From the NCBI GenBank assembly GCA_032250805.1, contig JAVVEM010000005.1, positions 32,659-96,658 on the forward strand: 64,000 nt of DNA, in the 5' to 3' direction. The translations under genes were made by a program, and so were the position numbers. The first letter of the stretch is position 1. Each line of letters opens with the position of its first letter. This document shows positions 37,580 to 52,422 of this stretch, one piece after another. Origin of the DNA: Bacteroidales bacterium (GTDB taxonomy: Bacteria; Bacteroidota; Bacteroidia; Bacteroidales; B18-G4). The notes under the pieces were generated by a model, which did not search any database, had not been told where the DNA came from, and saw only the letters and a list, made by a program, of their open reading frames with translations.

Positions 37580-38291
37580 ATGAAGAAGATATTAATTGCC
37601 TTAATGACCGTATTGCTGGTTTTTTTCCTTATATGGTCATGCAAACACGAACCTGAAGAATTTGTGGGACCCGACCCTCCCGGCCCTGGTCCTCCCGGCC
37701 CTGATCCTCCAATTGAAAATCCCTGCGATCCTGATACTGTTTACTTTGCAAAAGACCTGCTGCCCATTTTACAAAGCACTTGTTCCAAACCAGGTTGCCA
37801 TGATGACATCAGCATGCAGGATGGCTTAAGGTTGACTGATTATTCTTCGGTGATACAAACCGCAGATATCAGGCCGGGCGATCCCGGAGGAAGTGATCAC
37901 AGAATCGGATCCCGACAAGCGCATGCCGCCGCCACCCAACGATCCAATGTCGCAGGAAAATATCGATATGGTATACACCTGGATCATGCAGGGAGCATAA
38001 AATCTTTTTTGTGTTGATACAGTATGCGATACGGTTGATGTAAACTACACAAACCAGATCAGTGGCATTGTTCAGGCGAATTGCCTGGGCTGCCATAACG
38101 ATAGCAATCCGCTTGGAGGTCTGAGCCTCGAAGGCTATGATAAAGTTGTTGACGTAGCCGCCGATGGCCGTTTGCTGGGAGTTGTCAGGCACTAGTCCGG
38201 ATATCCTCCCATGCCTAAAAATGCTGCACAACTTCCGGATTGCAAAATCCGCCAACTTGAAATATGGATAGACAATGGAACACCACAATAA
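37580..38291 (+). pseudogene. disrupted two-domain cytochrome-c-like lipoprotein gene (domain 1 Cx4CH, domain 2 CxxCH)
   Basis: Lipoprotein leader MKKILIALMTVLLVFFLIWSCKHE, then STCSKPGCH. The frame breaks near 37889; the continuation EVITESDPDKRMPPPPNDPMSQENIDMVYTWIMQGA is in the +1 frame. In-frame TAA at 37998-38000. The second domain (QANCLGCHNDSNPLGGLSLEGY...) contains an in-frame TAG at 38193-38195, then PMPKNAAQLPDCKIRQLEIWIDNGTPQ and a stop at 38289-38291. The domains resemble the intact 48179-48550 product. Confidence 0.6.
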
Positions 38292-38332
38292 AATGCTCTT
38301 GCCGGTTGTCATGTTAATGATGGCTGCAATGC

Positions 38333-38758
38333 TTGCCATGTTGCAGCCTTGCAGTAATTGGCATTCTGGCTGCACTATATGTTTGGTTCTTTGTCTACAA
38401 CAAGTCACACAGGGATTATGAGAAGGCCGACCCGGATCATGTTCTTGCGGCCGAAGAATTGTATGATCAATACAAGCAAAACAAATCGCTTGCCGATAGT
38501 TTGTACACCGGAATGGTGTTGCAAATCGACGGCAATCTGAGTAAAATCGAATCTGCCGATACGCTTTTGATCGTAGTATTTGCCTTTGAGCAGGGAATGT
38601 TCGGTGAAGAGGGGGTAAGATGTGTATTGCTGCAAAATCAGCATGAGAAGATATCAACATATAGCGATAATGATCCCATTACACTTAAAGGATACTGTAC
38701 CGGATATAACGATACGGATGTGATCATTGAGAAAGTATCGGTCATAACAACGAATTAA
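38333..38758 (+). CDS. membrane-anchored small protein, possibly an OB-fold (tRNA_anti-like family) protein
   Basis: N-terminal TM LAVIGILAALYVWFFVY followed by a ~110-aa soluble domain. Only a TTG (38333) or CTG start is available in frame, while ATGs at 38311/38317 are in another frame, so the start is uncertain or the 5' end is damaged. Confidence 0.4.
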   Translation: MPCCSLAVIGILAALYVWFFVYNKSHRDYEKADPDHVLAAEELYDQYKQNKSLADSLYTGMVLQIDGNLSKIESADTLLIVVFAFEQGMFGEEGVRCVLLQNQHEKISTYSDNDPITLKGYCTGYNDTDVIIEKVSVITTN

Positions 38759-39815: not shown

Positions 39816-40613
39816 CTAGGTTGAGTATGTATGTACGCTTGATGCTGCCGAAGGCAGATAGTTGATCCCAAACCAGCAGATCAGCAATATAGCAAATGCC
39901 ATTGCCACGATCCACAGGGCCGTTTTATGCGACTGTTTTTTGCGTAAACGATAATGGATATAGAGCAGGTAGGCCAGCCAGGTAAGAAATGCCCATGTTT
40001 CTTTAGGATCCCAGGTCCAGTAATGCCCCCACGCTTCTTTGGCCCACAAGGCCCCAAATAACAAACCAAAAGTTAAGAACGCAAATCCGATATAAACAAT
40101 ATTATCGGCCATGAGCATGATTTGGCTTGTATCTTTTCCTTTATAGTAAATGTAAAGGCCATAGATCCCGATCAGCGACGAAAATCCCAGGAAGGCATAC
40201 CCAATAATATATACCACCACATGTGGAATAAACCAGGGACTTTGCAGTGCCGGCATGAGTGTTTTGTCGAAGGTGTCGGGGTTTAAATAGTTAAGGAACA
40301 GGAACAATAAGGCCATCAATATGGTGTAGGCCAGCATAAGTGGAAGCTTCCAGCGGTAATAGAGCACAATGCCTATTGTGGAGATGAAAATTCCGTACCA
40401 CAGCCTTGTCTCGGCCAGAGTCCTGAATGGTGGCCGCTCAAGGCTTATCCAGAGGCCAATGGTGAAAGTGATCACCGCTGCCCATCCCAGGAACAGGAAA
40501 ACTGCTTTGAGGCCATGAAAAACCGATTTCTTCGGTGTAATGATGAATACCAGCGACAATGTCCAGAAAACAGTCGCCATCAGTAAATATGTTGGATAAT
40601 CCAGCCAGGTCAT
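39816..40613 (-). CDS. ccsA: system II cytochrome c biogenesis protein CcsA (haem-handling subunit)
   Basis: Trp-rich WWD motif WGHYWTWDPKETWAFLTWL. 8 TM segments. The start overlaps the ResB stop (ATGA, 40610-40613). Confidence 0.9.
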   Translation of the reverse strand: MTWLDYPTYLLMATVFWTLSLVFIITPKKSVFHGLKAVFLFLGWAAVITFTIGLWISLERPPFRTLAETRLWYGIFISTIGIVLYYRWKLPLMLAYTILMALLFLFLNYLNPDTFDKTLMPALQSPWFIPHVVVYIIGYAFLGFSSLIGIYGLYIYYKGKDTSQIMLMADNIVYIGFAFLTFGLLFGALWAKEAWGHYWTWDPKETWAFLTWLAYLLYIHYRLRKKQSHKTALWIVAMAFAILLICWFGINYLPSAASSVHTYST

Positions 40614-41872
40614 GATTTCTTCGTTTTAATTCGTCCTTTACCCATCCAGAGCAGGTATAAACTGCCAATGAGAATCATAAAGATCCCTGTATATACCACT
40701 GGCAGCCAGGGATCCCTTACCAGTTCAATAATACTCTTTTTTGACCATCGCCCCATTAATTCATCGTACCCGGTCTGATAAATTTTCCAGCCATCAATTT
40801 TAACTGGTTTATTTACTTCAATATAAAAATCTTCATAATCGTCCATGCTTCGGTACAGGCGGATGTCGGAGCTGTATTTCTTTGGCCTGAGTTGGGTCAT
40901 GGCAACAGAAATGTCCTTATTGATTGCCAGCTGACTTGATGGCACGGCATAGCTGCCATCAGAAACCCAGCCTTTTGCCACCGTATCGCTGTATTGGTTG
41001 GTAACGATCACATAAACAGCTCTTGCGCCTCCCTCGCGGCTGGTGGTATCATAAACATCGCCATATTTCCGGGCAAACGGGATCACCTTTTCGAAAAATA
41101 GTGTGTATTCATCCAACTGATCCTGTTCACCTTCCACCACAGTGGCAAGTTTCCCTCCTTTTTCAAGAACAAGCGTGTAATCCTTGTTGTTCATGATGCC
41201 AAGTTCAGGCGGATAGGTCTCAATCTCAAAATCAAGGAGCATCATCCCAAAGCCCATATTATAGGTGTTTCCGTTTGCATCATAGGCGTTGATTGTTGGA
41301 TGTTTTTCTTCAAGTTGCATGCTGAGCCTCCACATATCGGATGAACCCAGCGAGGCGGCAACAATGACGATCCATAACCCTATGTGATTAAGCAAAAAAG
41401 AAATATTTTTCAGACTAAAATTATTTATTCTTCGTATGATCGTAAAACCCAGTACAACAAGTAAAAGCAGGGCGCTCATCAGGTAAGGCCAGCTACTTGT
41501 TACATGCGTAAGGCCCAGACTGTCGAGCAGGGATGGATCTGCAGAATTTACCCCCTGGGGGATAAACCCCAGCAACAATACAATGAATGTAAAAGCTGTG
41601 ATCGAAGCAATGGCTGCATAGGTGCTTGAAAGCCATTTTACAATGGGATGCTTTACGAGGTAATGGATCAGTATAAAATAAATAATAAAAATGAGTATGA
41701 TCGCAATATTGGCCGGCCAGGCAGGCATCCTCACACCACCGCCAAAAAGGAGTTGTATGAGGAATCCGGATAACAATACGAAAAAGGCGATAAGAAAACT
41801 CTCGCGATATCCCCAGGGAAATTGCCAGAGCCTGGATTTTTTCTTTTTATTGGGGTTTTTTTGGCTCATCAA
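40610..41872 (-). CDS. ccsB: system II cytochrome c biogenesis protein ResB/CcsB
   Basis: N-terminal TM bundle, a large periplasmic loop, a C-terminal TM (WLPVVYTGIFMILIGSLYLLW), and translational coupling to ccsA. Confidence 0.8.
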   Translation of the reverse strand: MMSQKNPNKKKKSRLWQFPWGYRESFLIAFFVLLSGFLIQLLFGGGVRMPAWPANIAIILIFIIYFILIHYLVKHPIVKWLSSTYAAIASITAFTFIVLLLGFIPQGVNSADPSLLDSLGLTHVTSSWPYLMSALLLLVVLGFTIIRRINNFSLKNISFLLNHIGLWIVIVAASLGSSDMWRLSMQLEEKHPTINAYDANGNTYNMGFGMMLLDFEIETYPPELGIMNNKDYTLVLEKGGKLATVVEGEQDQLDEYTLFFEKVIPFARKYGDVYDTTSREGGARAVYVIVTNQYSDTVAKGWVSDGSYAVPSSQLAINKDISVAMTQLRPKKYSSDIRLYRSMDDYEDFYIEVNKPVKIDGWKIYQTGYDELMGRWSKKSIIELVRDPWLPVVYTGIFMILIGSLYLLWMGKGRIKTKKS

Positions 41873-41936
41873 TTATGCTTTTGAAGGGACAAATGTAGTG
41901 AATAAACCGATTATTTCGGTATTGCAATACTTGTTT

Positions 41937-42806
41937 TTATTGACTTTTTGATCTTTTAATTTTGATCAGCTGGATCATGGCATAGATATAATGTCCCCAA
42001 ACTCCTGTTAACATGATGATCAATGTAATGATCATCCATAGGGGAGCAATTGGTGTCCAAAGTTCACGTGCCGGGCCTTCGGCTTGTATCAGTACTTTTG
42101 GCAAAGCCCAGTTGATCGTACCACTTACTTCAACATTTCCGTAGTCGTAATGATCTTCGAGCCTTGCCATTAACAAAACATTGCCTGCCGAATCGCCAAT
42201 AATAGTAGAAGGAAAATCTATGTAACCTGTTCCGTCTTCTTCAAACCAACCATCGGCGATCTTCATATCACTGAACATTCTCGGCACATAAAAATACAGA
42301 TCGTCGTCGGCCAAAGGGATATCTTCTTCTGCACCATGTATAACGCCTTCAAAATAAACCATTTTTTCTTCTCCGTCCTCTTCAAAAGCCAGACTGATGC
42401 TAACATCCTTCACCATCAGTTCTTCTTCAGCTTCATAATAGGCCTCATTGCCAGCAAAGCGGGCTTTAAAATGAATATATCCCTCCGCATCCTTTGCAAA
42501 GGCAATCCTTCCGTCAGGGATATTAAGTTCAGCAAGTCCATCTTCATTGCTTATCACATCATCAATCAAAATCTCCTCGCCATCAGCAACATATAAAAAA
42601 CTTACCGGCAGTCCCTCTGCAGCATACTCCCCCTTATCACCGTCGGATGTAATTTTTGCGATAAGCGACCTGCTCATGTCGCTGTATTTCCAGGTACTGA
42701 ACGCAAGATATATATCAGCTGGTTGTTCCTCCTGTGCCTGGATAACTCCCGTTAAACAATAGATAAACAGAAAAAGCAGGATAACATTTTTAATCTTTGT
42801 GCTCAT
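41937..42806 (-). CDS. hypothetical acidic periplasmic protein with signal peptide and C-terminal TM anchor
   Basis: MSTKIKNVILLFLFIYCLTGVIQAQ leader, a D/E-rich body, a C-terminal TM LWMIITLIIMLTGVWGHYIYAMI and a basic tail. No Cys or haem motifs. Confidence 0.55.
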   Translation of the reverse strand: MSTKIKNVILLFLFIYCLTGVIQAQEEQPADIYLAFSTWKYSDMSRSLIAKITSDGDKGEYAAEGLPVSFLYVADGEEILIDDVISNEDGLAELNIPDGRIAFAKDAEGYIHFKARFAGNEAYYEAEEELMVKDVSISLAFEEDGEEKMVYFEGVIHGAEEDIPLADDDLYFYVPRMFSDMKIADGWFEEDGTGYIDFPSTIIGDSAGNVLLMARLEDHYDYGNVEVSGTINWALPKVLIQAEGPARELWTPIAPLWMIITLIIMLTGVWGHYIYAMIQLIKIKRSKSQ

Positions 42807-42836
42807 GATCTTTTCATTTAAAGCATTTGTTGATCG

Positions 42837-44156
42837 CTATAATATTTCTTCGCCGGCTTCGTGTTCTTTTTCCTCCGAAACGGGAATAATGGGAATAAAG
42901 CGTGCTCCGATAGTGAAGAACAGGCAAAAGGCTGCCACTCCACCAATGGTTAATGCCCATTCAACCCATGTTCCGGTGTATGATATCCAGTCGATTCGTG
43001 CATCCTGAATCGGTAAATAAGGCGATTCAAGGGTTGGTATTACGATCAGGTAGCGGTTAAACCACAGCGCTATCACCACCACAACAGCCGTTATGGTAAT
43101 CATATTGATGGTCCTGAATTTACGAATGCCCACAACGATCAGCGGCATTAACACTCCGATATAATTAGAGACAATAAACATCAGGAAATATTTATCCAAC
43201 AGCAGGCGAATAAGTTTTTCATCATCTTTTTGCGATCCATACCATTTTGTAAGGTATTCACTAAAAGTGAAATACCCGAAAAAGGCTGCCAGAATAAGCA
43301 TCAGAACCCCGATGTTAACAAAATGTTTTTTGGTGAGGTATTTTTCCAGATGGTAAATCTTTCTGAAAAGCCACATGGCGATGATCAGTACTCCCGTTCC
43401 GGAATATACTGCTGCAATGACAAAATAGGGCCCGAAAATTGTGCTGTGCCATCCGGGTTGTAAAGTAACACTGAAGATCCATGCCAGCACTGAATAAACA
43501 ATAATGGCAATGGCGATTACCATGGCAGCCATAATGTCGGTGGCATTGTTAAGTCTTTTTTGTTGTTCAGGTGTTCCCGTATAACCAAGGGCAAGGATTT
43601 TATAAAGTTTTTTCCTCCATCTGGGGATTTTGAGATCCTTAAAATCGCGCAGGGCGGCAATATCCCTTAATACAGAGAGATAAAGAAAAATAATACAGCC
43701 GAATATATCGGTTGATATTGCAATAACGTCCCAGGTGATCGGGCTCTGTATTCTGCCATATAAAACAAGGTTAGGAAGTTTATCAAGCCGGCCGATGCAG
43801 AGCAAAATATAAAGAGGTCCGATAAACAGGGCGATGATTGTAATAAATTCAGCCATGCGTATAACAGGTTTGCGCCATGAAGTCCGAAACAAATGAAGCG
43901 TACCCGAGACAAGAGCTCCGGCATAACTTACTCCCATAAAGAAAATGAAGTTTACAATATAGATGCCCCATACAACATTATCGCGCATGCCTGTAACTAT
44001 ATGACCTTGTGTGATCTGGATAATGAGTGCATATATTCCCCAGATGATCAATAATGAGAGGAAGATGATCCATACAATCGACTTTGTCTTTGGTTTTTCA
44101 ACCTGGTCGCGAAATTCCCTGAGTTTTTCAAAACTGGCTACTGAAGTACTTTCCAT
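42837..44156 (-). CDS. NrfD/PsrC family integral-membrane quinone-interacting subunit
   Basis: ~10 TM helices. Positioned 3 nt after the NrfC-like gene. Length and hydrophobic pattern are typical of the polysulfide reductase NrfD family. Confidence 0.8.
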   Translation of the reverse strand: MESTSVASFEKLREFRDQVEKPKTKSIVWIIFLSLLIIWGIYALIIQITQGHIVTGMRDNVVWGIYIVNFIFFMGVSYAGALVSGTLHLFRTSWRKPVIRMAEFITIIALFIGPLYILLCIGRLDKLPNLVLYGRIQSPITWDVIAISTDIFGCIIFLYLSVLRDIAALRDFKDLKIPRWRKKLYKILALGYTGTPEQQKRLNNATDIMAAMVIAIAIIVYSVLAWIFSVTLQPGWHSTIFGPYFVIAAVYSGTGVLIIAMWLFRKIYHLEKYLTKKHFVNIGVLMLILAAFFGYFTFSEYLTKWYGSQKDDEKLIRLLLDKYFLMFIVSNYIGVLMPLIVVGIRKFRTINMITITAVVVVIALWFNRYLIVIPTLESPYLPIQDARIDWISYTGTWVEWALTIGGVAAFCLFFTIGARFIPIIPVSEEKEHEAGEEIL

Positions 44157-44159
44157 TGT

Positions 44160-45107
44160 TTACCCCCTTTTCTTTGCATAAGGTGTATCATCATATCTTT
44201 TCTTAATTTCCTCATCAAGGCTTTCGTAACCCCTGTCGACAGGGAACTGACGGTTTACAGGAGGAAGATAATATACGCTGGGTCTTGTGCCCAGGCCTTC
44301 GAGATAACGATATCCGCTACGGTCGCGGATAAGCTCACTGAAAGCAGCTGTTTCGGCACCATTTGTTACAGCATCCTCATCAATATCACCAAAATAGATT
44401 ACGCCCATCGGACAGGCCAGGAGGCAATACGGAAGCTTGTTTTCGCGCAAACGGTCGGCACAGAACACACATTTTGATACTGTCCCTTCCTGCCCGGGAA
44501 CGCTGTTTTCCGGATTATATACAATCGTATCATCATATTCTTCATGATCCTTCCAGGAAAAATTCCTGGCTGAATACGGGCAGCCGGTCATACAAAATTT
44601 GCAGCCAATACAGCGGTCATGATCAACAAGTACGATCCCATCAGTGCGTTTGTAGGTTGCCCCCACAGGGCAGACACTCACGCACAAAGGATTATCGCAC
44701 TGAAAACAAGGCTTTGGAAACCAATAAGGTGCCGTCTTTTCAGAGTCCTGCATGAGATATACTTTCATATATTCATGGTCTTTCGGCAAATGGTGTCCTT
44801 CCTGACAGGCTTCAACGCATTTACGTGCATTGTAGCATTTGGCGAGGTCGATCACCATCACGAATTTCCTTCCGGGGATACCCTGCCGGGCTTGTAGCTT
44901 GTATTCTTCCGAAGGTGTGATATCGGAAGCATCAACTTCAACAAGTTTACCGTCGGGTGTGAGGAGTTTTACCTTTTCGCCTGAACGTGGCTCTTTGCCA
45001 CATGACGACAGGACTCCTCCGGCTGCCAGGGCACCAGCCCCGGCCAGCAATCCCCTTCGGATAAATTCCCTCCGGGGATTATTTTGTTTATCCCTTTTGT
45101 TTTCCAT
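44160..45107 (-). CDS. Tat-exported 4x[4Fe-4S] ferredoxin-type subunit (NrfC/PsrB/HybA-like)
   Basis: Twin-arginine leader PRREFIRRGLLAGAGALAAGGVLSSC. Four Cys groups (CYNARKCVEAC, CFQCDNPLCVSVCP, CIGCKFCMTGCP, CVFCADRL...CLLACP). Confidence 0.88.
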   Translation of the reverse strand: MENKRDKQNNPRREFIRRGLLAGAGALAAGGVLSSCGKEPRSGEKVKLLTPDGKLVEVDASDITPSEEYKLQARQGIPGRKFVMVIDLAKCYNARKCVEACQEGHHLPKDHEYMKVYLMQDSEKTAPYWFPKPCFQCDNPLCVSVCPVGATYKRTDGIVLVDHDRCIGCKFCMTGCPYSARNFSWKDHEEYDDTIVYNPENSVPGQEGTVSKCVFCADRLRENKLPYCLLACPMGVIYFGDIDEDAVTNGAETAAFSELIRDRSGYRYLEGLGTRPSVYYLPPVNRQFPVDRGYESLDEEIKKRYDDTPYAKKRG

Positions 45108-45131
45108 AAATATGAATAATAATTATTGAAA

Positions 45132-45749
45132 TCAGTGTTTTTCGTGGTATCCGGTAAACATGCTGGCAAAATTGTTCAATGGTTTGGCGCCAATGGTAAT
45201 GAAATAAATATGAACAAACAGAAAGATGGAAACAACAAAACCCATGATCACGTGGACCAGGTCTGCCATGTGCAGGCTGGTTCCTCCAAAAAAGTCGAGC
45301 AGCAGCGTTTCGGGATATAATAATGCAATGCCTGTAATAATGATCACCGGAATGCAGATATACATGATGACAACATAACTGAAGCGTTGCAGGGGGTTGA
45401 ACTTATTATCTTCGGTAATTTCAAAAGGTGGTTTTTTGCCCTTAAAGATCTCAAAGATGTAATATCTGGCCTGTCGTGTAATATTTTTATAATAACTTTT
45501 TAATCTGAAAAGGTATTGCCGTCCGTTAGGAGTGACAAGATTGCCTACAAGAAAGAAAATATAACTGATTGTGAGCAATATACCCGAATAGTCATGAATG
45601 GCCACTGCCCAGTCGAAGCGTATGAATGGATATGCAGGATCAGAGTATTGCATGCTGATACCTGTAATGATCAGTAAGAGGCACAGAATAGCATTGAGCC
45701 AGTGCCAGAGGCGAACCCAAACAGGATATAAATATAGTTTATCAGCCAT
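45132..45749 (-). CDS. membrane b-type cytochrome (PhsC / HydC / Ni-Fe hydrogenase cytochrome b family-like)
   Basis: WVRLWHWLNAILCLLLIITG, with conserved His in TM helices (HW, IHD, LVHVIMG, HIYF). 8-nt overlap with the upstream heptahaem gene. Confidence 0.78.
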   Translation of the reverse strand: MADKLYLYPVWVRLWHWLNAILCLLLIITGISMQYSDPAYPFIRFDWAVAIHDYSGILLTISYIFFLVGNLVTPNGRQYLFRLKSYYKNITRQARYYIFEIFKGKKPPFEITEDNKFNPLQRFSYVVIMYICIPVIIITGIALLYPETLLLDFFGGTSLHMADLVHVIMGFVVSIFLFVHIYFITIGAKPLNNFASMFTGYHEKH

Positions 45750-46731
45750 TTTGTTTTTGTTTAATCGTTAAGCGTAAGATCGCATGAAGAGCAATGAATA
45801 GCAAAACAGCACCTGCAATAATGAGGCTTAGTTTATTGAGATATACATTTCTGTTTGCACCAATAACATAGCCTTCTTCAAGCAAAGCAGAATTTGTAAA
45901 ACCGGCTTTGGAGCGCTGATCAGTAAACTGCAGGCGGTATAATGATGCAAGTAACCTGGATTCTTTCGAGTGACAGTCGACGCAACGCTTGACAGCATTT
46001 TCCTTGGGCTGGACATTATGTCCGACAAGCATTTCATCATTGATCTCAACATGGCACTCAATGCACCTTACTTTCCTGAAATGCAGGCTTTGGTTCGGCA
46101 ACCACTCATGCGTTTTAATGATGTTTGGTTTTTCCTGTGTGGTGAGGAGCTCGTATTTATCAATATCAGCATGGCAATTCAGGCAGATTGCATTATCATA
46201 TTGAATAAATTCCTGCATATTTTCATTTGTGCGGGCATTGATTTTGTAGGTATGCGGATCATGGCACATCCAGCATGTAAATTCGTCTGAATGCAGGGAT
46301 GAATGCACGCTCTTGCGGAATTCCTCTTCAATACCTTCGAAATTATATTGTGCATAATTGTCGTCGCCACCGTGGCAGTCGATACATTCGTATATGGGTT
46401 CCATCCTGAGCTCACCGGAGTGTGGAAATTCGGCATAATCGGCTGAGTGGCAGTCTACACAACGAAAATTCCAATGATTCGATACGTAAAACTGGGCTGA
46501 ATCGATAATATAATACGGATTCATCCTTTCTTTTACATCCCTCTCAACCCAGTCATTATAATAGGAGTAATATTTTTGACCGTGACATTTAAGACAATCC
46601 TGGTTTTCTTCGAGGTATTCATAAACACGTTCCGTTTTTTCAACGGGGGTTTGTGAAGAAAGGGGTTGAATAATGGTAACAATCAGTAAAACAAGTACTG
46701 CCGGGGCGATAAACAGCAACAACCTTCGCAT
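45742..46731 (-). CDS. membrane-anchored heptahaem c-type cytochrome
   Basis: Seven CxxCH motifs (CLKCH, CVDCH, CIDCH, CWMCH, CLNCH, CIECH, CVDCH). N-terminal anchor MRRLLLFIAPAVLVLLIV and C-terminal TM LSLIIAGAVLLFIALHAIL. Start set at 46731 because the ORF-track extension runs through the terminator hairpin. Confidence 0.85.
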   Translation of the reverse strand: MRRLLLFIAPAVLVLLIVTIIQPLSSQTPVEKTERVYEYLEENQDCLKCHGQKYYSYYNDWVERDVKERMNPYYIIDSAQFYVSNHWNFRCVDCHSADYAEFPHSGELRMEPIYECIDCHGGDDNYAQYNFEGIEEEFRKSVHSSLHSDEFTCWMCHDPHTYKINARTNENMQEFIQYDNAICLNCHADIDKYELLTTQEKPNIIKTHEWLPNQSLHFRKVRCIECHVEINDEMLVGHNVQPKENAVKRCVDCHSKESRLLASLYRLQFTDQRSKAGFTNSALLEEGYVIGANRNVYLNKLSLIIAGAVLLFIALHAILRLTIKQKQNG

Positions 46732-46745
46732 AGCTTTTTGATTTG

Positions 46746-46779
46746 AAAAAAAAGGTGCCATTTTTATTAAATGGCACCT
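46746..46779 (-). terminator. intrinsic terminator between the monohaem cytochrome c gene and the heptahaem gene
   Basis: 11-bp perfect stem aggtgccattt (46753-46763) / aaatggcacct (46769-46779), loop ttatt. On the minus-strand transcript it is followed by a 7-U run (complement of A 46746-46752). Confidence 0.7.
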
Positions 46780-46796
46780 CAAACCTATTAACAATT

Positions 46797-47219
46797 CTAC
46801 TTCAGGGTTCTTAAGTAATTAATGATTGCCCATCGGTCTTCTTCTTCGGTGATCTTTTTTTCATAATTTGGCATTTCATTCCTTCCAATGATCGACTTAT
46901 AATAAAGTTCACCATCAGTGCCTGACTGAAATTCTTCTGAACTAAAATCTCCGGGAAAGGTTTCCAGTTGTTTGGCTTTGGGCCCGTCACCCAAGCCATC
47001 ATTGCCATGGCATGATTTACAATGCTTGCTATAAAGCATTTTTCCAACCTTGACCAGATCGGCGTCATCGGCATATGGATTTTCCATCTTCACATATTTT
47101 GAAGGGATATCCCAGGGCTCACCTTTTTTCTGGTCCTGTGGAAATGCAAATGCCATAAATATAAATGCAAACAGAATCGCAGATGCTATTCCAAGTACGT
47201 TAATTGTTTTTGTTTTCAT
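46797..47219 (-). CDS. monohaem class I c-type cytochrome, exported or anchored
   Basis: N-terminal hydrophobic segment; a single CKSCHGNDGLGDG motif; a distal Met candidate in GRNEMPNYE. Confidence 0.85.
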   Translation of the reverse strand: MKTKTINVLGIASAILFAFIFMAFAFPQDQKKGEPWDIPSKYVKMENPYADDADLVKVGKMLYSKHCKSCHGNDGLGDGPKAKQLETFPGDFSSEEFQSGTDGELYYKSIIGRNEMPNYEKKITEEEDRWAIINYLRTLK

Positions 47220-47282
47220 AATTTATGTTTTTAAATGATTATACAATAAAGGTAAAGGTACGAATTTTTTAGCGTTTCTCAA

Positions 47283-48155
47283 CTAAAAACTCCATAATCG
47301 TGTAATGGTAAAGCCAAAAAACAGATCGCCGTTCAGCCGCCAGTCGTTCTGATTTTCCATCATGGTATACTGCGGCGACAGGTCGGTGGCCGAGCTTACA
47401 AATATCTGAAAACAGTGTGTGCTGGTAGCGATCTCCCAGCCAATACCGAAGTTATCGTGTGGAGGGTTCGTGAGCGTTGTATGCTCCTGTATGCCTTTAA
47501 TGTCCAAGGGGATACCATAATTGAACACGATCGACGATTGTGCGGATAGGCGTGCACGCCCTGAAAAGGAAATACCAATTTTATCATGCTCCATTAATGA
47601 ATCCACCCTGTTTATATGACTGAAATTACCTGCTACCTGAACAGAAAGCCAATCGGTAAATTTCCTGGCTACGATCAGTTCTCCATAGTACGACAACCTG
47701 TTTGTAAACGTGTAGTCCTGGCCAAAATAGCTTTTATTCCTGCCATCAACACCCATATTGCCATATGCTGTAACGGCTACCGGTATTTTGTCGTCGCGTG
47801 TTTGTTCCAGAATGTTATACTTGACACGGAAGTCCTGGAGCTTACGCATTTTGGTGGTTCCGAAGCCAACAGATAATTTGTCGGTGATGCTGTAATTAAC
47901 TCCCAGCCTAACGTTGGTAGAGCCATAGATGCCAAAAAGGTTTGAAATATCCTCTATCCTGTCGAAACGGTGTTCGATCACAAATTCGAGGGTTTTGGCT
48001 GTAGGGATGTAACCTGTCTGGTGGTCGATCACTGTGGGGCAGGCAAAGGCCGGCCTTACAGGTTTGCTTTTAACTTTTGTTTTTTCATTTTCCTGGGCAC
48101 TGAGCATTAATGGCAGCACAAACAGGATGATAAGTATTATATTTAGTTTTTTCAT
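47283..48155 (-). CDS. DUF5777-like outer-membrane beta-barrel protein
   Basis: Start at MKKLNIILIILFVLPLMLSAQ (signal peptide). Amphipathic beta-strand pattern. C-terminal FGFTITRLWSF (terminal aromatic). Paralog of 38906-39802. Confidence 0.68.
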   Translation of the reverse strand: MKKLNIILIILFVLPLMLSAQENEKTKVKSKPVRPAFACPTVIDHQTGYIPTAKTLEFVIEHRFDRIEDISNLFGIYGSTNVRLGVNYSITDKLSVGFGTTKMRKLQDFRVKYNILEQTRDDKIPVAVTAYGNMGVDGRNKSYFGQDYTFTNRLSYYGELIVARKFTDWLSVQVAGNFSHINRVDSLMEHDKIGISFSGRARLSAQSSIVFNYGIPLDIKGIQEHTTLTNPPHDNFGIGWEIATSTHCFQIFVSSATDLSPQYTMMENQNDWRLNGDLFFGFTITRLWSF

Positions 48156-48178
48156 GCTCTGTAGTTTTTTGGTTACCA

Positions 48179-48550
48179 TTAATTGTTTTCTGCACCTTGC
48201 TTGATCCATGCCAGGATAATCTCTGCATCGGCCGGATTCTGAACGTAGGGTTTCATAGATCCTGTTGTCATGCTCGTGTAAATAATGCTTGACTCAGGAA
48301 TGTCGGTGTCTACATAATTTCCATTGATCAGGGCATTATAGGCATTCCCTTCAGACAGGTCAGGGGGGTTGGCTCCGGGGCCATGACAGATAGCTGTGTT
48401 GCATCCATTGTTGAAAACGGGCATCACATCAACCGAGAAGCTCACATTATCGGGGATCGTAACCTTTTCGGGCGTGATCCATTCATATTCGCATGAACTA
48501 AGCATGAAGGCTGCCATGACGAGAAGCATTAGAGCGCTGCGTATTTTCAT
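48179..48550 (-). CDS. small lipoprotein with a single Cx4CH cytochrome-c-like motif
   Basis: Lipobox AFMLSSCEYEW. VMPVFNNGCNTAICHGPGANPPDL. C-terminal ILAWIKQGAENN resembles the domain ends in the 37580-38291 pseudogene. Confidence 0.6.
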   Translation of the reverse strand: MKIRSALMLLVMAAFMLSSCEYEWITPEKVTIPDNVSFSVDVMPVFNNGCNTAICHGPGANPPDLSEGNAYNALINGNYVDTDIPESSIIYTSMTTGSMKPYVQNPADAEIILAWIKQGAENN

Positions 48551-48629
48551 ATCCTTTATCTTTTATGCGTTGAAATGAAAAAAGGCCTCAATCATTAACT
48601 GAAGCCCTTTTTCGCAACAATTATTATTA

Positions 48630-49682
48630 CTACTGGATGGCTTCTATTGAGTTTACAAGAAGCGCTCGTGCATATTTAGGATTGTGGACAGCCTTGCTTC
48701 TGTCTTCTTCAATAAACTTATAATTGTAGAAAGCTCCGGTCTGGGCATTTGTATATGTTCCGGGAACGGTCAGATAACCATCTTCCCGCATAACACCCTG
48801 GTCTTTTAACAAGGTTTCCAGTTGCAACAGATAGTCTTCAATTTCCAGGGCCAGGTCTTCAGTAGCAGCAATGAGGTTGGTTTCGTTTGAATGGCATCCC
48901 GACGCCAGGCATCCTGCCAGGTTCAGTTCGGTATGGCCGTGATACTCATATCCCATCTTAAAGGTATGGCCTCCGGCCTGTGCGCCATATGCATCCGCCA
49001 TATGGCACGATACACAACCATCTTCTATGCCTGAGTGGGCTGTGTTTTCGTAGCCCATGCTGCCTGCAATTTCATAGGCACCACCACCGATACCGTACAG
49101 GAGGTTGCCCTGTGGGCCGTGGTGTGGTCCCCAGCGATAACTGCTTCCAACGGGGAATTCTACAGTTCCGGGTCCCATGGCCGGGTATGGTTGCACAGGC
49201 CTTGATTGGTGGCATTTTGTACATAGGTTGCCATTGGCTCTGTCGGCTGTTGCACCACCTTCCATGAAAGTTACAGGATCAGTATACCTGAGCATCCAGT
49301 CGTCAGCCGTATAGGTTTCATGAACCTTGTGGCAGGTGTAACAGTTAATGGGTGTTGGATTAGCAATAGTGGTTGCCGTTGTATCAGCACCGGTTTCAAT
49401 AACCTCCCTGAATCCCATGCTGGTATGACAGGGTGCGCAGGAATTGCCATTTCTTTCAAAATTTCCGCCATTTGCGTGTGTTGATGCTTCCCATTGTACT
49501 ACCTTGGCCAGAAAGTCTTCTCCTGAGTTGTGGCATTGACCACATGTAGCCGTGCCATCAGTGCCGTCAATTCCATCTTCGCCTGCAGGTCCTGCAGGTC
49601 CTTCTTTTGTGCAGCTTGTTGCTACGATCATTGCCAGTGCCAAACCGGGAACGATGAGTAAAATTGTAATTAGCTTTTTCAT
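48630..49682 (-). CDS. multihaem c-type cytochrome lipoprotein (5 CxxCH + 1 Cx4CH) with a collagen-like GXY linker
   Basis: Lipobox IVATSCTKE. (GXY)6 = GPAGPAGEDGIDGTDGTA. CGQCH, CAPCH, CYTCH, CTKCH, CVSCH and CLASGCH. Confidence 0.85.
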   Translation of the reverse strand: MKKLITILLIVPGLALAMIVATSCTKEGPAGPAGEDGIDGTDGTATCGQCHNSGEDFLAKVVQWEASTHANGGNFERNGNSCAPCHTSMGFREVIETGADTTATTIANPTPINCYTCHKVHETYTADDWMLRYTDPVTFMEGGATADRANGNLCTKCHQSRPVQPYPAMGPGTVEFPVGSSYRWGPHHGPQGNLLYGIGGGAYEIAGSMGYENTAHSGIEDGCVSCHMADAYGAQAGGHTFKMGYEYHGHTELNLAGCLASGCHSNETNLIAATEDLALEIEDYLLQLETLLKDQGVMREDGYLTVPGTYTNAQTGAFYNYKFIEEDRSKAVHNPKYARALLVNSIEAIQ

Positions 49683-50027
49683 ATTTGTTGTTTTTGGTTT
49701 CTGAGCACAATTTTACCTCTAGTAATCGAAATATGAAAAATAATGTATATGATGTGCATGCCCAATTGGTTTAATTAAATAAGAAAAAATAAACATAAAT
49801 ATCAATAAAAAGATGATAAAAAACAATAAAAGTATTATAAAACACAGAAAAAGAGGAATGTAATAAATGCTTTAATATCAAAAAATGATCACAAAATCTT
49901 ATTTAGACCAGATATAAATACGATTTTTGCATGAATTTACCGCGCCCGGCAGATCTGCTATTTAAGCTGATATGGCCAAATTGACCGTTTCGTTATTCAA
50001 ATGAAGCAATCTAAAAAATGTTACACA

Positions 50028-50723
50028 TTAACCCGTCTCACCAATTCGCAATAATTCTTTTTTATCAAGGACTTCAACAAGGTTGCTTTCAACCTTGATC
50101 AATTTTTGATCCTTGAATACTTTCAGCACCCGGATAACATTTTCTTTCGACATGGCAGTGAGATCTGCAAGATCCTGCCGGCTTATGGTAAGAATAAAAG
50201 GATTCCGGCCGTAAATTTCATCCATTAAAAAAATTATGGCATCAGCAATGCGGCCATGCATTTGCTTTTGGGTGAGATTAATGAATTTTTGAAAATTGTT
50301 TATGCTCAGTATATTGCTGCTTTTAAGCAGGTCGCAGGCAAAACTGTGATTTTTCCCAAGCATTTCTTCAATTATTTTTGTATCAACCAGGCATGCCCTT
50401 GTATCTTCAACAGCAGCGACAGAAAAGTGATGGCGATAATCGACGAACATACCAGGATTGCCTATCATCTGCACAGGCTTGGCAAAGGAAAGGATCAGGT
50501 TTCGCTTGTTCAGACCTTCGATATAAATCTTGGCAAGTCCATCTGTAATGCAAGCCAAATGGGTAAGCGGGGATCCCTGCTTAAAAATGATCTCTCCTTT
50601 GTTAAAGGTAAGTTCATAGCGGCTTTCGTTTACCTGTTCAAGCTCCTTTTCTTTAAGCAAGGCAAAAATATTATTCCTCTTGTTACAGGATTTACAGTTA
50701 GTAAGCTTATTTGATATGCTCAT
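50028..50723 (-). CDS. Crp/Fnr family transcriptional regulator
   Basis: cNMP-binding-like beta-roll (FNKGEIIFKQGSPLTHLACITDGLAKIY) and a C-terminal HTH (ISRQDLADLTAMSKENVIRVLKVF). N-terminal CKSC pair. Confidence 0.85.
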   Translation of the reverse strand: MSISNKLTNCKSCNKRNNIFALLKEKELEQVNESRYELTFNKGEIIFKQGSPLTHLACITDGLAKIYIEGLNKRNLILSFAKPVQMIGNPGMFVDYRHHFSVAAVEDTRACLVDTKIIEEMLGKNHSFACDLLKSSNILSINNFQKFINLTQKQMHGRIADAIIFLMDEIYGRNPFILTISRQDLADLTAMSKENVIRVLKVFKDQKLIKVESNLVEVLDKKELLRIGETG

Positions 50724-50897
50724 CTTTGTCGTTGCTGGTTAGGATTTTTAGCTCAGGGCAAAAATAACATAATTATGCGATCATCTGCCTGATAAGGTTA
50801 TTGCTTGTACAATAATAATGAACAGGAATTATAATAAAGATTCAGCTTTTCATGTAGCCGGGATACGCTGTAAAGAAGTGCCTGAGGTTTGATTATT

Positions 50898-51266
50898 TTA
50901 TGTGTAGAGTTGTGAAGCATCAACAAAGATGAGGTATTCGCTGATGAGCCTGCCCTGCATTTTAAGTTTTACGGCAAAGGGCACCCTGAGCACGGTATTG
51001 TTGTGTCGTGTATAATTAACAATGCCTGTTGCAAAACGGATGTCACCAAGTTGCCAGTCTTCTATTTGTTCATGCCTGATGTTTTTAATGCTCCGGTAGA
51101 AGGTGTCAAGAAAGGATGTAATGCCTTCCCGGCCTTCTACATGGGGCATATTGGCAAAACGGAATATAGCGTCTTCGGTCATCATTGCTGCGAGTGCAGC
51201 GCCATCTTTTGCATCCACAATGGAATACATTTCATTTACAAAATTGTCGGTTTTCATGCGTATCAT
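50898..51266 (-). CDS. SnoaL-like / NTF2-fold family protein
   Basis: ~120-aa alpha+beta cone pattern (FVNEMYSIVDAKDGAALAAMMTEDAIFRFANMP...). The assignment is tentative. Confidence 0.5.
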   Translation of the reverse strand: MIRMKTDNFVNEMYSIVDAKDGAALAAMMTEDAIFRFANMPHVEGREGITSFLDTFYRSIKNIRHEQIEDWQLGDIRFATGIVNYTRHNNTVLRVPFAVKLKMQGRLISEYLIFVDASQLYT

Positions 51267-51358: not shown

Positions 51359-51814
51359 TCAGTCTGAGAGTTCGGGATTTGATAAGATGTCGTCAGGGTC
51401 GACAGATTGCATGTTGGCAAGCTTTGAACGCTCATCGAGCAATTTGTCGATCTCTTCCTCGCTCAGGCCGGGTTTTTTGAGCATTTCATCTATTTCGCGC
51501 AGATCGCCGGGTAATTCAATCTCTTTTTCTTCTTTTGCGTTGTCGATCTCGTCAAAGTCATCGCCCAGCTCTGATTTAAGCTGTTCAACAAGGCTGGCGA
51601 TCATGCCTTTTACGGGTTCACCAAATTTTTCAAGCAATTCTTCCGATAATTGGTCGCGCATATTCTCATAATTGCCCAGCAGATATTCAAAATTCTGATA
51701 AAAGGTCTTGTCGATGCCATGAAGCTCATCAAGCGAAGTCCTTTCCTTCAGTTTTTTGAACAGCTTGATAAGCAGATCAAGATTTTCATTAAACGACCTG
51801 TCTTCACTTGCCAT
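51359..51814 (-). CDS. hypothetical highly acidic helical protein
   Basis: 151-aa ORF, D/E/L/K-rich, with no signal peptide or motif. Confidence 0.45.
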   Translation of the reverse strand: MASEDRSFNENLDLLIKLFKKLKERTSLDELHGIDKTFYQNFEYLLGNYENMRDQLSEELLEKFGEPVKGMIASLVEQLKSELGDDFDEIDNAKEEKEIELPGDLREIDEMLKKPGLSEEEIDKLLDERSKLANMQSVDPDDILSNPELSD

Positions 51815-51912
51815 ATTGCTTTTTTTTACAAATTTACGATATATTCATTAAACGAAGTATGCTTCAAATCATTGCATATCTTTGTATGAGTTTATCCATT
51901 TATATTAGAACA

Positions 51913-52422
51913 ATGAAAACTGCAGTTTGGTTTACTTTCCTGTCACTAATTCTTGGTTTTTCGTCCTATTCGCAGGAAAAAAACAAAAAGATCATCGATG
52001 AGCGATTCGAAAAAGAGATTCTGATTGGCCATTGCGACAGGGCCGGCCTGACAGAAGGTGAGTTTGGCGAAAGCTTTGCGGCTGAGTATAAAGCTTACGA
52101 TATTGAAAAGAAATTGATCAAAAAGATCAGGAAACACGATCATGATTATGTCATCGTACTGATACTTGGAACATGGTGTCATGACAGCAAGTTGCAGGTG
52201 CCCAGATTTTACCGGATCATAGATGAGGCCCGCATTCCTGCCGGCACCATGAAAGTGATCTGCGTTGATGGTTACAAGAAAGGTGGAGAGGTATCCATTG
52301 CAAATTATGATATTGAATTCGTTCCTACTTTTATTTTCTATCGTAACGGGCAGGAGATCGGACGAATCGTTGAACAACCTGATGCATCACTTGAGCAGGA
52401 CTTTTATAATATTATACAGTAG
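51913..52422 (+). CDS. thioredoxin-fold family protein, exported (CxxS variant)
   Basis: Start at MKTAVWFTFLSLILGFSSYSQ. Trx-like GTWCHDS in place of WCxxC. PTFIFYRNGQEIGR. Confidence 0.65.
   Translation: MKTAVWFTFLSLILGFSSYSQEKNKKIIDERFEKEILIGHCDRAGLTEGEFGESFAAEYKAYDIEKKLIKKIRKHDHDYVIVLILGTWCHDSKLQVPRFYRIIDEARIPAGTMKVICVDGYKKGGEVSIANYDIEFVPTFIFYRNGQEIGRIVEQPDASLEQDFYNIIQ

Follow-up and report, generated by a model that had tools for sequence, protein, structure and literature searches.

Cytochrome c synthases of System II have been described in a fused form, as the CcsBA proteins of Bacteroides thetaiotaomicron and Helicobacter hepaticus, and in a split form, as ResB/ResC of Bacillus subtilis and CcsB/CcsA of Bordetella. 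Wolinella succinogenes is the only organism with tested substrate-dedicated System II synthases, and NrfI is the only CXXCK lyase confirmed in a System II organism (PMC12285233). The present analysis concerns a split ResB-CcsA gene pair in a stretch of 64,000 nucleotides (nt) from a Bacteroidales bacterium (contig JAVVEM010000005.1), the whole of which is called the window below. The original prediction, made from the DNA itself, regarded this pair as a possible haem lyase dedicated to three proteins of the region that carry Cx4CH in place of CxxCH. The outcome for such a dedication was mostly negative, and nothing tied the synthase specifically to Cx4CH. The pair belongs to a Bacteroidota-specific, divergent split System II lineage, the CcsA subunit of which is called NrfM in some databases. 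With moderate confidence, it is read here as a synthase that sits beside its clients without being specific to one motif, and that matures the neighbouring cytochromes, including their Cx4CH sites. Which proteins the pair matures, and that it tolerates Cx4CH, are points that we infer.

Both genes of the pair lie on the minus strand. The ResB/CcsB-like subunit (420 residues) is encoded at 40610..41872 and the CcsA subunit (265 residues) at 39816..40613. At the junction the minus strand reads ...AAATCATGACC..., in which the ATG of ccsA overlaps the TGA of the ResB gene at 40610-40613 (ATGA), as had been claimed; the ATG at 41869 is probably the true ResB start. The CcsA subunit matched Pfam Cytochrom_C_asm (PF01578) with 122.7 bits (cut-off 29.9), and the ResB-like subunit matched Pfam ResB (PF05140) with 48.4 bits (cut-off 24.6), the matched part being residues 320-370 only. 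With the NCBIfam equivalog model TIGR03144 (c-type cytochrome biogenesis protein CcsB), CcsA scored 149.7 bits, which is below the cut-off of 187.6; the fused enzyme of Marinifilum also stayed under it (175.3). In the Protein Data Bank (PDB), CcsA aligned over residues 35-262 with the fused enzymes of B. thetaiotaomicron (25vk, E 1e-22) and H. hepaticus (7s9y, E 5e-21), and the ResB-like protein had no match in the PDB sequence search.

The WWD block of CcsA (W190-W207, WAKEAWGHYWTWDPKETW) and the residues His131, His220 and His261 are shared by at least 97% of the 84 family members and also by the fused paralogues. His131 and His261 are the two outer histidines flanking the WWD block and His220 is the membrane histidine; all align with histidines of 25vk and 7s9y. 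In the ResB-like subunit, His163 lies in a membrane helix and was invariant across 86 orthologues, and it is presumably the counterpart of the known CcsB membrane histidine. The ratio of nonsynonymous to synonymous substitution rates (dN/dS) was 0.05-0.17 for the pair and 0.07-0.17 for ResB. The ResB gene stood directly before the CcsA gene in nearly all fetched orthologous loci of sufficient length, the exceptions being L086, without a ResB match, and a few short contigs with CcsA only. Carrying a WWD domain together with a conserved histidine in ResB and three more in CcsA, the pair looks like an intact and fully functional System II synthase. The family scores, the WWD block, the histidines and the purifying selection thus agree with the earlier view of the pair as a real System II synthase. 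A tblastn search with CcsA and ResB revealed no second copy of either in the window.

For the comparison, 91 loci (L001-L091) were used, 80 from a scan of species-representative genomes together with loci fetched before, among them a few duplicates, and their neighbouring genes were classified by tblastn. A further set, L092-L171, consists of metagenome loci obtained by scanning metagenome contigs with an alignment of the 123-residue lipoprotein described below, so that about 170 related loci were compared in all. The nearest relatives of the pair are uncultured Bacteroidales, and one orthologue from Lutibacter carries the UniRef name 'Respiratory nitrite reductase specific cytochrome c biogenesis protein NrfM'. 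The gene order nrfH-nrfA-ResB-CcsA was found in 42 of the 91 loci, some of them duplicates (Lutibacter, Marinifilum, Flavicella, Gillisia, Prolixibacteraceae), and a cytochrome/DUF5777 cluster adjoined the pair in about 20. The remaining loci had neither; in L028, L055, L071, L076, L078, L085, L087 and L091, for example, no CxxCH protein was encoded within 10 kb of the pair. In some metagenome-assembled genomes of Bacteroidales, the split pair is adjoined by cytochromes of 928-932 residues with 19 CxxCH motifs (L025:3652-6450, L030:3646-6444, L056:7960-10746).

In ten Marinifilaceae loci (L040, L045, L052, L053, L057-L059, L079, L082, L083), a fused CcsBA of 1021-1033 residues is encoded just upstream of the split pair. 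The order there is a divergent fused CcsBA gene, just upstream of an alginate-export-like porin gene, then nrfH, nrfA and the split ResB-CcsA. The fused enzyme of Marinifilum matched the solved fused enzymes with E values of 1e-171 to 1e-203, whereas the window CcsA did so at about 1e-22. From these ten loci and this gap in E values, we conclude that the split pair represents a divergent lineage of System II, which stands apart from the classical enzyme and is able to coexist with it.

Three Cx4CH motifs were confirmed at the positions given in the original prediction. CLASGCH forms residues 258-264 (48891-48911) of a 350-residue lipoprotein cytochrome with five CxxCH motifs (48630..49682, minus strand), and CNTAICH forms residues 50-56 (48383-48403) of a small 123-residue monohaem lipoprotein with a PSCyt1-like fold (48179..48550, minus strand); both proteins are likely clients of the synthase. 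CSKPGCH forms residues 68-74 (37781-37801) of an open reading frame (ORF) that starts at 37580. This ORF makes up the first part of what was once the gene of a two-domain cytochrome lipoprotein of the PSCyt1 type and is now a pseudogene (37580..38291, plus strand), as had been supposed: compared with the intact 238-residue orthologue of L007, it contains one frameshift near 37890 and two in-frame stop codons. No Cx4CH motif beyond these three was present in ORFs of at least 70 residues in any of the six frames of the window, and among the 91 fetched loci only about ten cases occurred in ORFs not recognised as cytochrome-like, mostly short or antisense. The motifs are therefore not due to chance.

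Whether these segments are haem sites can be judged from their homologues. In an alignment of ten loci, the CLASGCH column is occupied in orthologues by CV--ECH, CI--ECH, CV--ACH, CQ--ECH and CQ--DCH, so that the 350-residue protein is a hexahaem cytochrome, the sixth site of which has a two-residue insertion in some lineages. In the family of the 123-residue lipoprotein, Cys55, His56 and Met99 are invariant and the site reads CNLCH or CVGCH in two members, while remoter homologues in L008, L025, L030 and L032 have CVSCH or CTSCH. Profile comparison with hhalign gave 98.2% for this family against a CxxCH paralogue, with CN~sgCH opposite CT--GCH, and 96.7% against the PSCyt1 Cx4CH domain of a three-domain protein; the tie of the lipoprotein to PSCyt1 is through profile comparison only (96.7-98.2%). 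The intact orthologues of the pseudogene matched PF07635 (PSCyt1) with 46.4 and 58.3 bits (cut-off 22), their best stretch being the Cx4CH domain, and the Cx4CH domain of the three-domain protein also scored above the Pfam cut-off. A Foldseek search of the PDB with the AlphaFold model of the 123-residue lipoprotein (mean predicted local distance difference test score 81) gave no significant match. Since orthologues carry an ordinary CxxCH at the same positions, the Cx4CH segments are, as far as sequence can show, genuine haem sites, namely CxxCH with a two-residue insertion, and in this respect the earlier proposal of Cx4CH as a haem-binding motif holds.

The link between the pair and Cx4CH was less consistent. 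Pairs beside Cx4CH clusters were observed in the window's clade and in L039, L049 and L054, but the clusters of L032/L034 contained homologous cytochromes with CxxCH sites only within 10 kb, and other pairs adjoin nrfHA or stand alone. The clusters of L008 and L025/L030 have CxxCH and one Cx3CH, the latter in an NrfH-like protein. Haem site 6 of the hexahaem protein toggles between Cx4CH and CxxCH among close relatives whose CcsA proteins are 84-86% identical. In the metagenome loci, 74 of 80 lipoprotein homologues carried Cx4CH, and the gene next after the lipoprotein encoded a DUF5777 barrel in every locus with enough downstream sequence; the Cx4CH lipoprotein together with DUF5777 looks like a widespread, uncharacterised outer-membrane haem module. 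The barrel gene in L092-L171 is often followed by genes for an iron-sulphur (FeS) protein, NrfD, a protein like the 289-residue one of the window and a cytochrome c. Fourteen of these loci were long, with at least 6 kb upstream and at least 8 kb downstream of the lipoprotein, and a ccs gene near the Cx4CH lipoprotein was detected in one of them, which belongs to the window's own clade, and not in the other 13.

These results bear on the proposal that the pair is an isoenzyme dedicated to Cx4CH, with a housekeeping synthase elsewhere serving CxxCH. It would explain why three Cx4CH genes are adjacent, why in the window's clade the pair always adjoins a Cx4CH gene, and why the lineage coexists with fused CcsBA in Marinifilaceae. 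It fits poorly with the pairs that stand beside canonical sites, beside nrfHA or alone, with the toggling of site 6 and with the 13 Cx4CH loci without a ccs gene. Cluster-linked and nrf-linked CcsA proteins differ in only three alignment columns, none of which touches the WWD block or a haem-ligand histidine, so no distinguishing residues are found near the active site. In cytochrome c3 of Desulfovibrio, the haems at CX4CH sites are matured by a general Ccm system, which also counts against a dedicated enzyme. We regard dedication to Cx4CH as very unlikely. A literature search found no papers that tested System II on CX3CH or CX4CH sites.

The history of the locus gives independent information on the pair. 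A block of 9.1 kb (41820..50903, minus strand), delimited by blastn against L001 and by comparison of loci, occurs in some lineages and is missing from others, irrespective of the ccsBA pair. It comprises genes for a Crp regulator, four c-type cytochromes, a DUF5777 barrel, a cytochrome b, an FeS protein, an NrfD-like protein and a 289-residue protein of unknown family. The block is present in L006, L011-L014 and L016, while L001 (82% CcsA identity) and L019 are colinear with the window on both sides and are without it. In the CcsA tree, L001 and L019 are nested within a strongly supported clade of block-bearing relatives, which means that these two lineages have lost the block. Between L001 and L019, dN/dS was 0.047 for CcsA and 0.117 for ResB, with dS of 0.36-0.47. 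The pair stayed intact after the loss of the block and is under strong purifying selection.

In the window, 64 nt separate the pair from the upstream gene, and this gap contains a conserved Bacteroidota-type TAnnTTTG box. The promoter-like box TACATTTG lies at 41890..41897 on the minus strand, about 20 nt upstream of the ResB ATG; it matches the Bacteroidota -7-type consensus and is a putative promoter element. A TAnnTTTG box was found 25-28 nt ahead of the called ResB start in the window, L006, L012, L013, L014 and L018, and at the same distance in the block-less L001 and L019 as well. Because this box is kept with or without the cytochrome block, the pair looks like its own, independently transcribed unit. 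A weak hairpin (ACCGA-AATAA-TCGGT, then TTATT; 41901..41920, minus strand), read from the sequence and of putative function, sits between the stop codon of the upstream gene (41937-41939) and the box. Comparable hairpins are present in L006, L013, L014 and L018, and in block-bearing lineages a small hairpin precedes the box. The description of the pair as operon-embedded was overstated in view of the 64-nt gap before it and the box which that gap contains. A search of sequencing runs found the stretch only in metagenomes of soil, sediment and rhizosphere; it turned up in no RNA run and in no isolate genome.

The same observations bear on another explanation, in which the pair is a cluster-specific maturation module for the whole adjacent multihaem electron-transfer cluster. 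The order of the cluster followed by ResB-CcsA is found again in L008/L020 (70% CcsA identity), where the chromosomal surroundings are different, and also in L039, L049 and L054, as would be expected of such a module. However, L001 and L019 have lost the cluster and yet maintain the pair, the pair has its own promoter-like box, and in L141 a cluster variant with a CxxCH lipoprotein precedes a fused CcsBA instead. A module of this kind is considered improbable. In L008/L020, a 499-residue NrfH-like cytochrome occupies the place where the FeS, NrfD and 289-residue protein genes otherwise stand.

In the reading preferred here, the pair would have a promoter of its own and a conserved place in the chromosome, and it would serve whatever c-type cytochromes are encoded in the genome, many of which are adjacent. 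Haem would pass within the membrane by way of ResB His163 and CcsA His220 and reach the outer WWD site, to be held there by His131 and His261 of CcsA, and thioether bonds would then join it to the cysteines of unfolded periplasmic cytochromes. The candidate clients in this locus are the hexahaem and monohaem lipoproteins, the 140-residue cytochrome c and the heptahaem protein, and the PSCyt1-type lipoprotein that is now a pseudogene may be a former client. The synthase would handle Cx4CH sites without specialisation for them. The claim that the synthase is encoded beside its clients thus keeps its general part, in that orthologues lie in nrfHA operons and in cytochrome clusters, but loses the Cx4CH-specific link through the toggling of the site and the loss of the block.

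Several observations weigh against this general synthase. In the window's clade, a Cx4CH gene lies beside the pair in every locus of judgeable length, and the block-less relatives keep CTQPGCH or CAQPGCH in a PSCyt1-type protein near the pair. The lineage is remote from characterised general synthases in the E values given above, and it coexists with a fused enzyme in Marinifilaceae as a specialised isoenzyme would. Many of its settings contain one non-canonical site, namely CXXCK in NrfA, Cx3CH in the 499-residue NrfH-like protein or Cx4CH here. In a quick CcsA tree, nrf-linked and cluster-linked copies were interleaved, but the approximately unbiased (AU) test left a single nrf clade unrejected (p = 0.20); two specialised subfamilies are therefore possible, and the interleaving is not relied on.

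Part of this evidence would also fit an accessory role, in which the split lineage works alongside a fused CcsBA with housekeeping function and serves atypical haem sites. Sites of this kind are the CXXCK of NrfA, the Cx3CH of NrfH-like quinol dehydrogenases and the Cx4CH found in hexahaem and PSCyt1-type lipoproteins. In all 42 nrf-linked loci the NrfA motif is CWTCK, the NrfH-like protein of 499-511 residues has CGT[LV]CH in L008 and L024-L026/L030, the window's clade has Cx4CH, and the ten Marinifilaceae loci hold the fused and the split enzymes side by side. NrfI is moreover the sole confirmed CXXCK lyase in System II organisms, and the route elsewhere is open (PMC12285233). On the other side, the clusters of L032/L034 offer canonical sites only, many pairs are stand-alone, the fused CcsBA of B. 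thetaiotaomicron has been reported to mature all six cytochromes of that organism (PMC13645880), and coexistence with a fused enzyme was seen in Marinifilaceae only. An accessory synthase is unlikely on this balance, though it deserves to be kept in view. The NrfH/NapC-like cytochrome of 499-511 residues contains six CxxCH and one Cx3CH (CGTLCH or CGTVCH; L008:7233-8732, L024, L025, L026, L030), and it takes the place of the FeS/NrfD/289-residue module in some versions of the cluster.

The pair stands at the end of a row of minus-strand genes that runs from 50723 to 39816. The row begins with the Crp-family regulator, followed by the 350-residue lipoprotein cytochrome, the 123-residue lipoprotein, the DUF5777 outer-membrane barrel and the 140-residue cytochrome c. 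It continues with the heptahaem cytochrome, a cytochrome b561-type protein, a 4Fe-4S protein, an NrfD-like membrane protein and the 289-residue protein, and ends with the ResB-like protein and CcsA. A terminator-like strong hairpin (46752-46780, minus strand; 12-bp stem and T-run) lies between the genes for the 140-residue cytochrome c and the heptahaem cytochrome. The 123-residue lipoprotein weakly matches the NCBIfam model 'LIC11213 family lipoprotein' of Leptospira, with a score under the cut-off (E 7.5e-7), on account of which related domains may exist outside Bacteroidota.

Around the row, a second operon of the 'cytochrome lipoprotein plus DUF5777' type is decaying in the window (37580-38758, compared with L007:2200-4850), its PSCyt1-type gene bearing the three lesions mentioned above. 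The gene for a 116-residue CxxCH cytochrome that is next after the PSCyt1-type gene in L007 is absent from the window, and the window, like L006/L007, lacks the YceI gene that L001 and L012-L014 possess. A thioredoxin-like gene at 51808-52422 was considered as a CcsX/ResA candidate and was ruled out by its WCHDS in place of CxxC. This plus-strand gene encodes a thioredoxin-fold protein with a single Cys that is conserved near ccsBA in the window, L001, L011, L019 and L028. A haem peroxidase-family gene (PF00141) at 2-1594 on the plus strand runs off the window start; it is probably a KatG-type catalase-peroxidase and suggests that the organism is exposed to oxygen or peroxide.

What emerges for Bacteroidota is a distinct lineage of split synthases, which usually accompanies nrfHA or a candidate electron-export cluster; the coexistence of fused and split enzymes in Marinifilaceae offers a concrete enzyme pair for comparison. 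In annotation, the Cx4CH of these Bacteroidota cytochromes should be treated as a haem site, and specificity should not be concluded from a synthase gene beside a Cx4CH protein. If the accessory role were true, the lineage would correspond in Bacteroidota to an NrfI of wider range, and it would explain the maturation of CXXCK in System II organisms outside Wolinella.

Compared with the known systems, the window CcsA shares the WWD core, the two outer histidines and the membrane histidine with the fused CcsBA of B. thetaiotaomicron (25vk) and H. hepaticus (7s9y/7s9z), and the pair would perform the same chemistry of haem export and thioether formation. The pair consists of two polypeptides (420 and 265 residues), whereas these fused enzymes are single proteins of 828-942 residues. 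In its position the lineage resembles NrfI, the CXXCK-dedicated CcsBA isoenzyme of W. succinogenes (nrfHAIJ), since orthologues of the pair hold the same place directly after nrfHA with a CXXCK NrfA; NrfI, however, is a fused protein of Campylobacterota to which the split pair is not shown to be close kin, and the window is without nrfHA. Among CXXCK synthases, dedication has been put to the test for NrfI alone (PMC12285233). CcsA1 of W. succinogenes, which acts on the CX15CH of MccA, is likewise encoded beside a cytochrome with unusual Cys spacing. Its site is a long loop, whereas the Cx4CH of the window is a two-residue insertion that interchanges freely with CxxCH in the families studied; we know of no such interchange between CX15CH and CxxCH. 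The ResB-like subunit of the window is shorter than its counterparts in Bacillus and Bordetella, with the Pfam model matched over about 50 residues only. In its split, adjacent and coupled genes, the pair is nevertheless like the general System II synthases ResB/ResC of B. subtilis and CcsB/CcsA of Bordetella, and like them it probably has a general substrate range.

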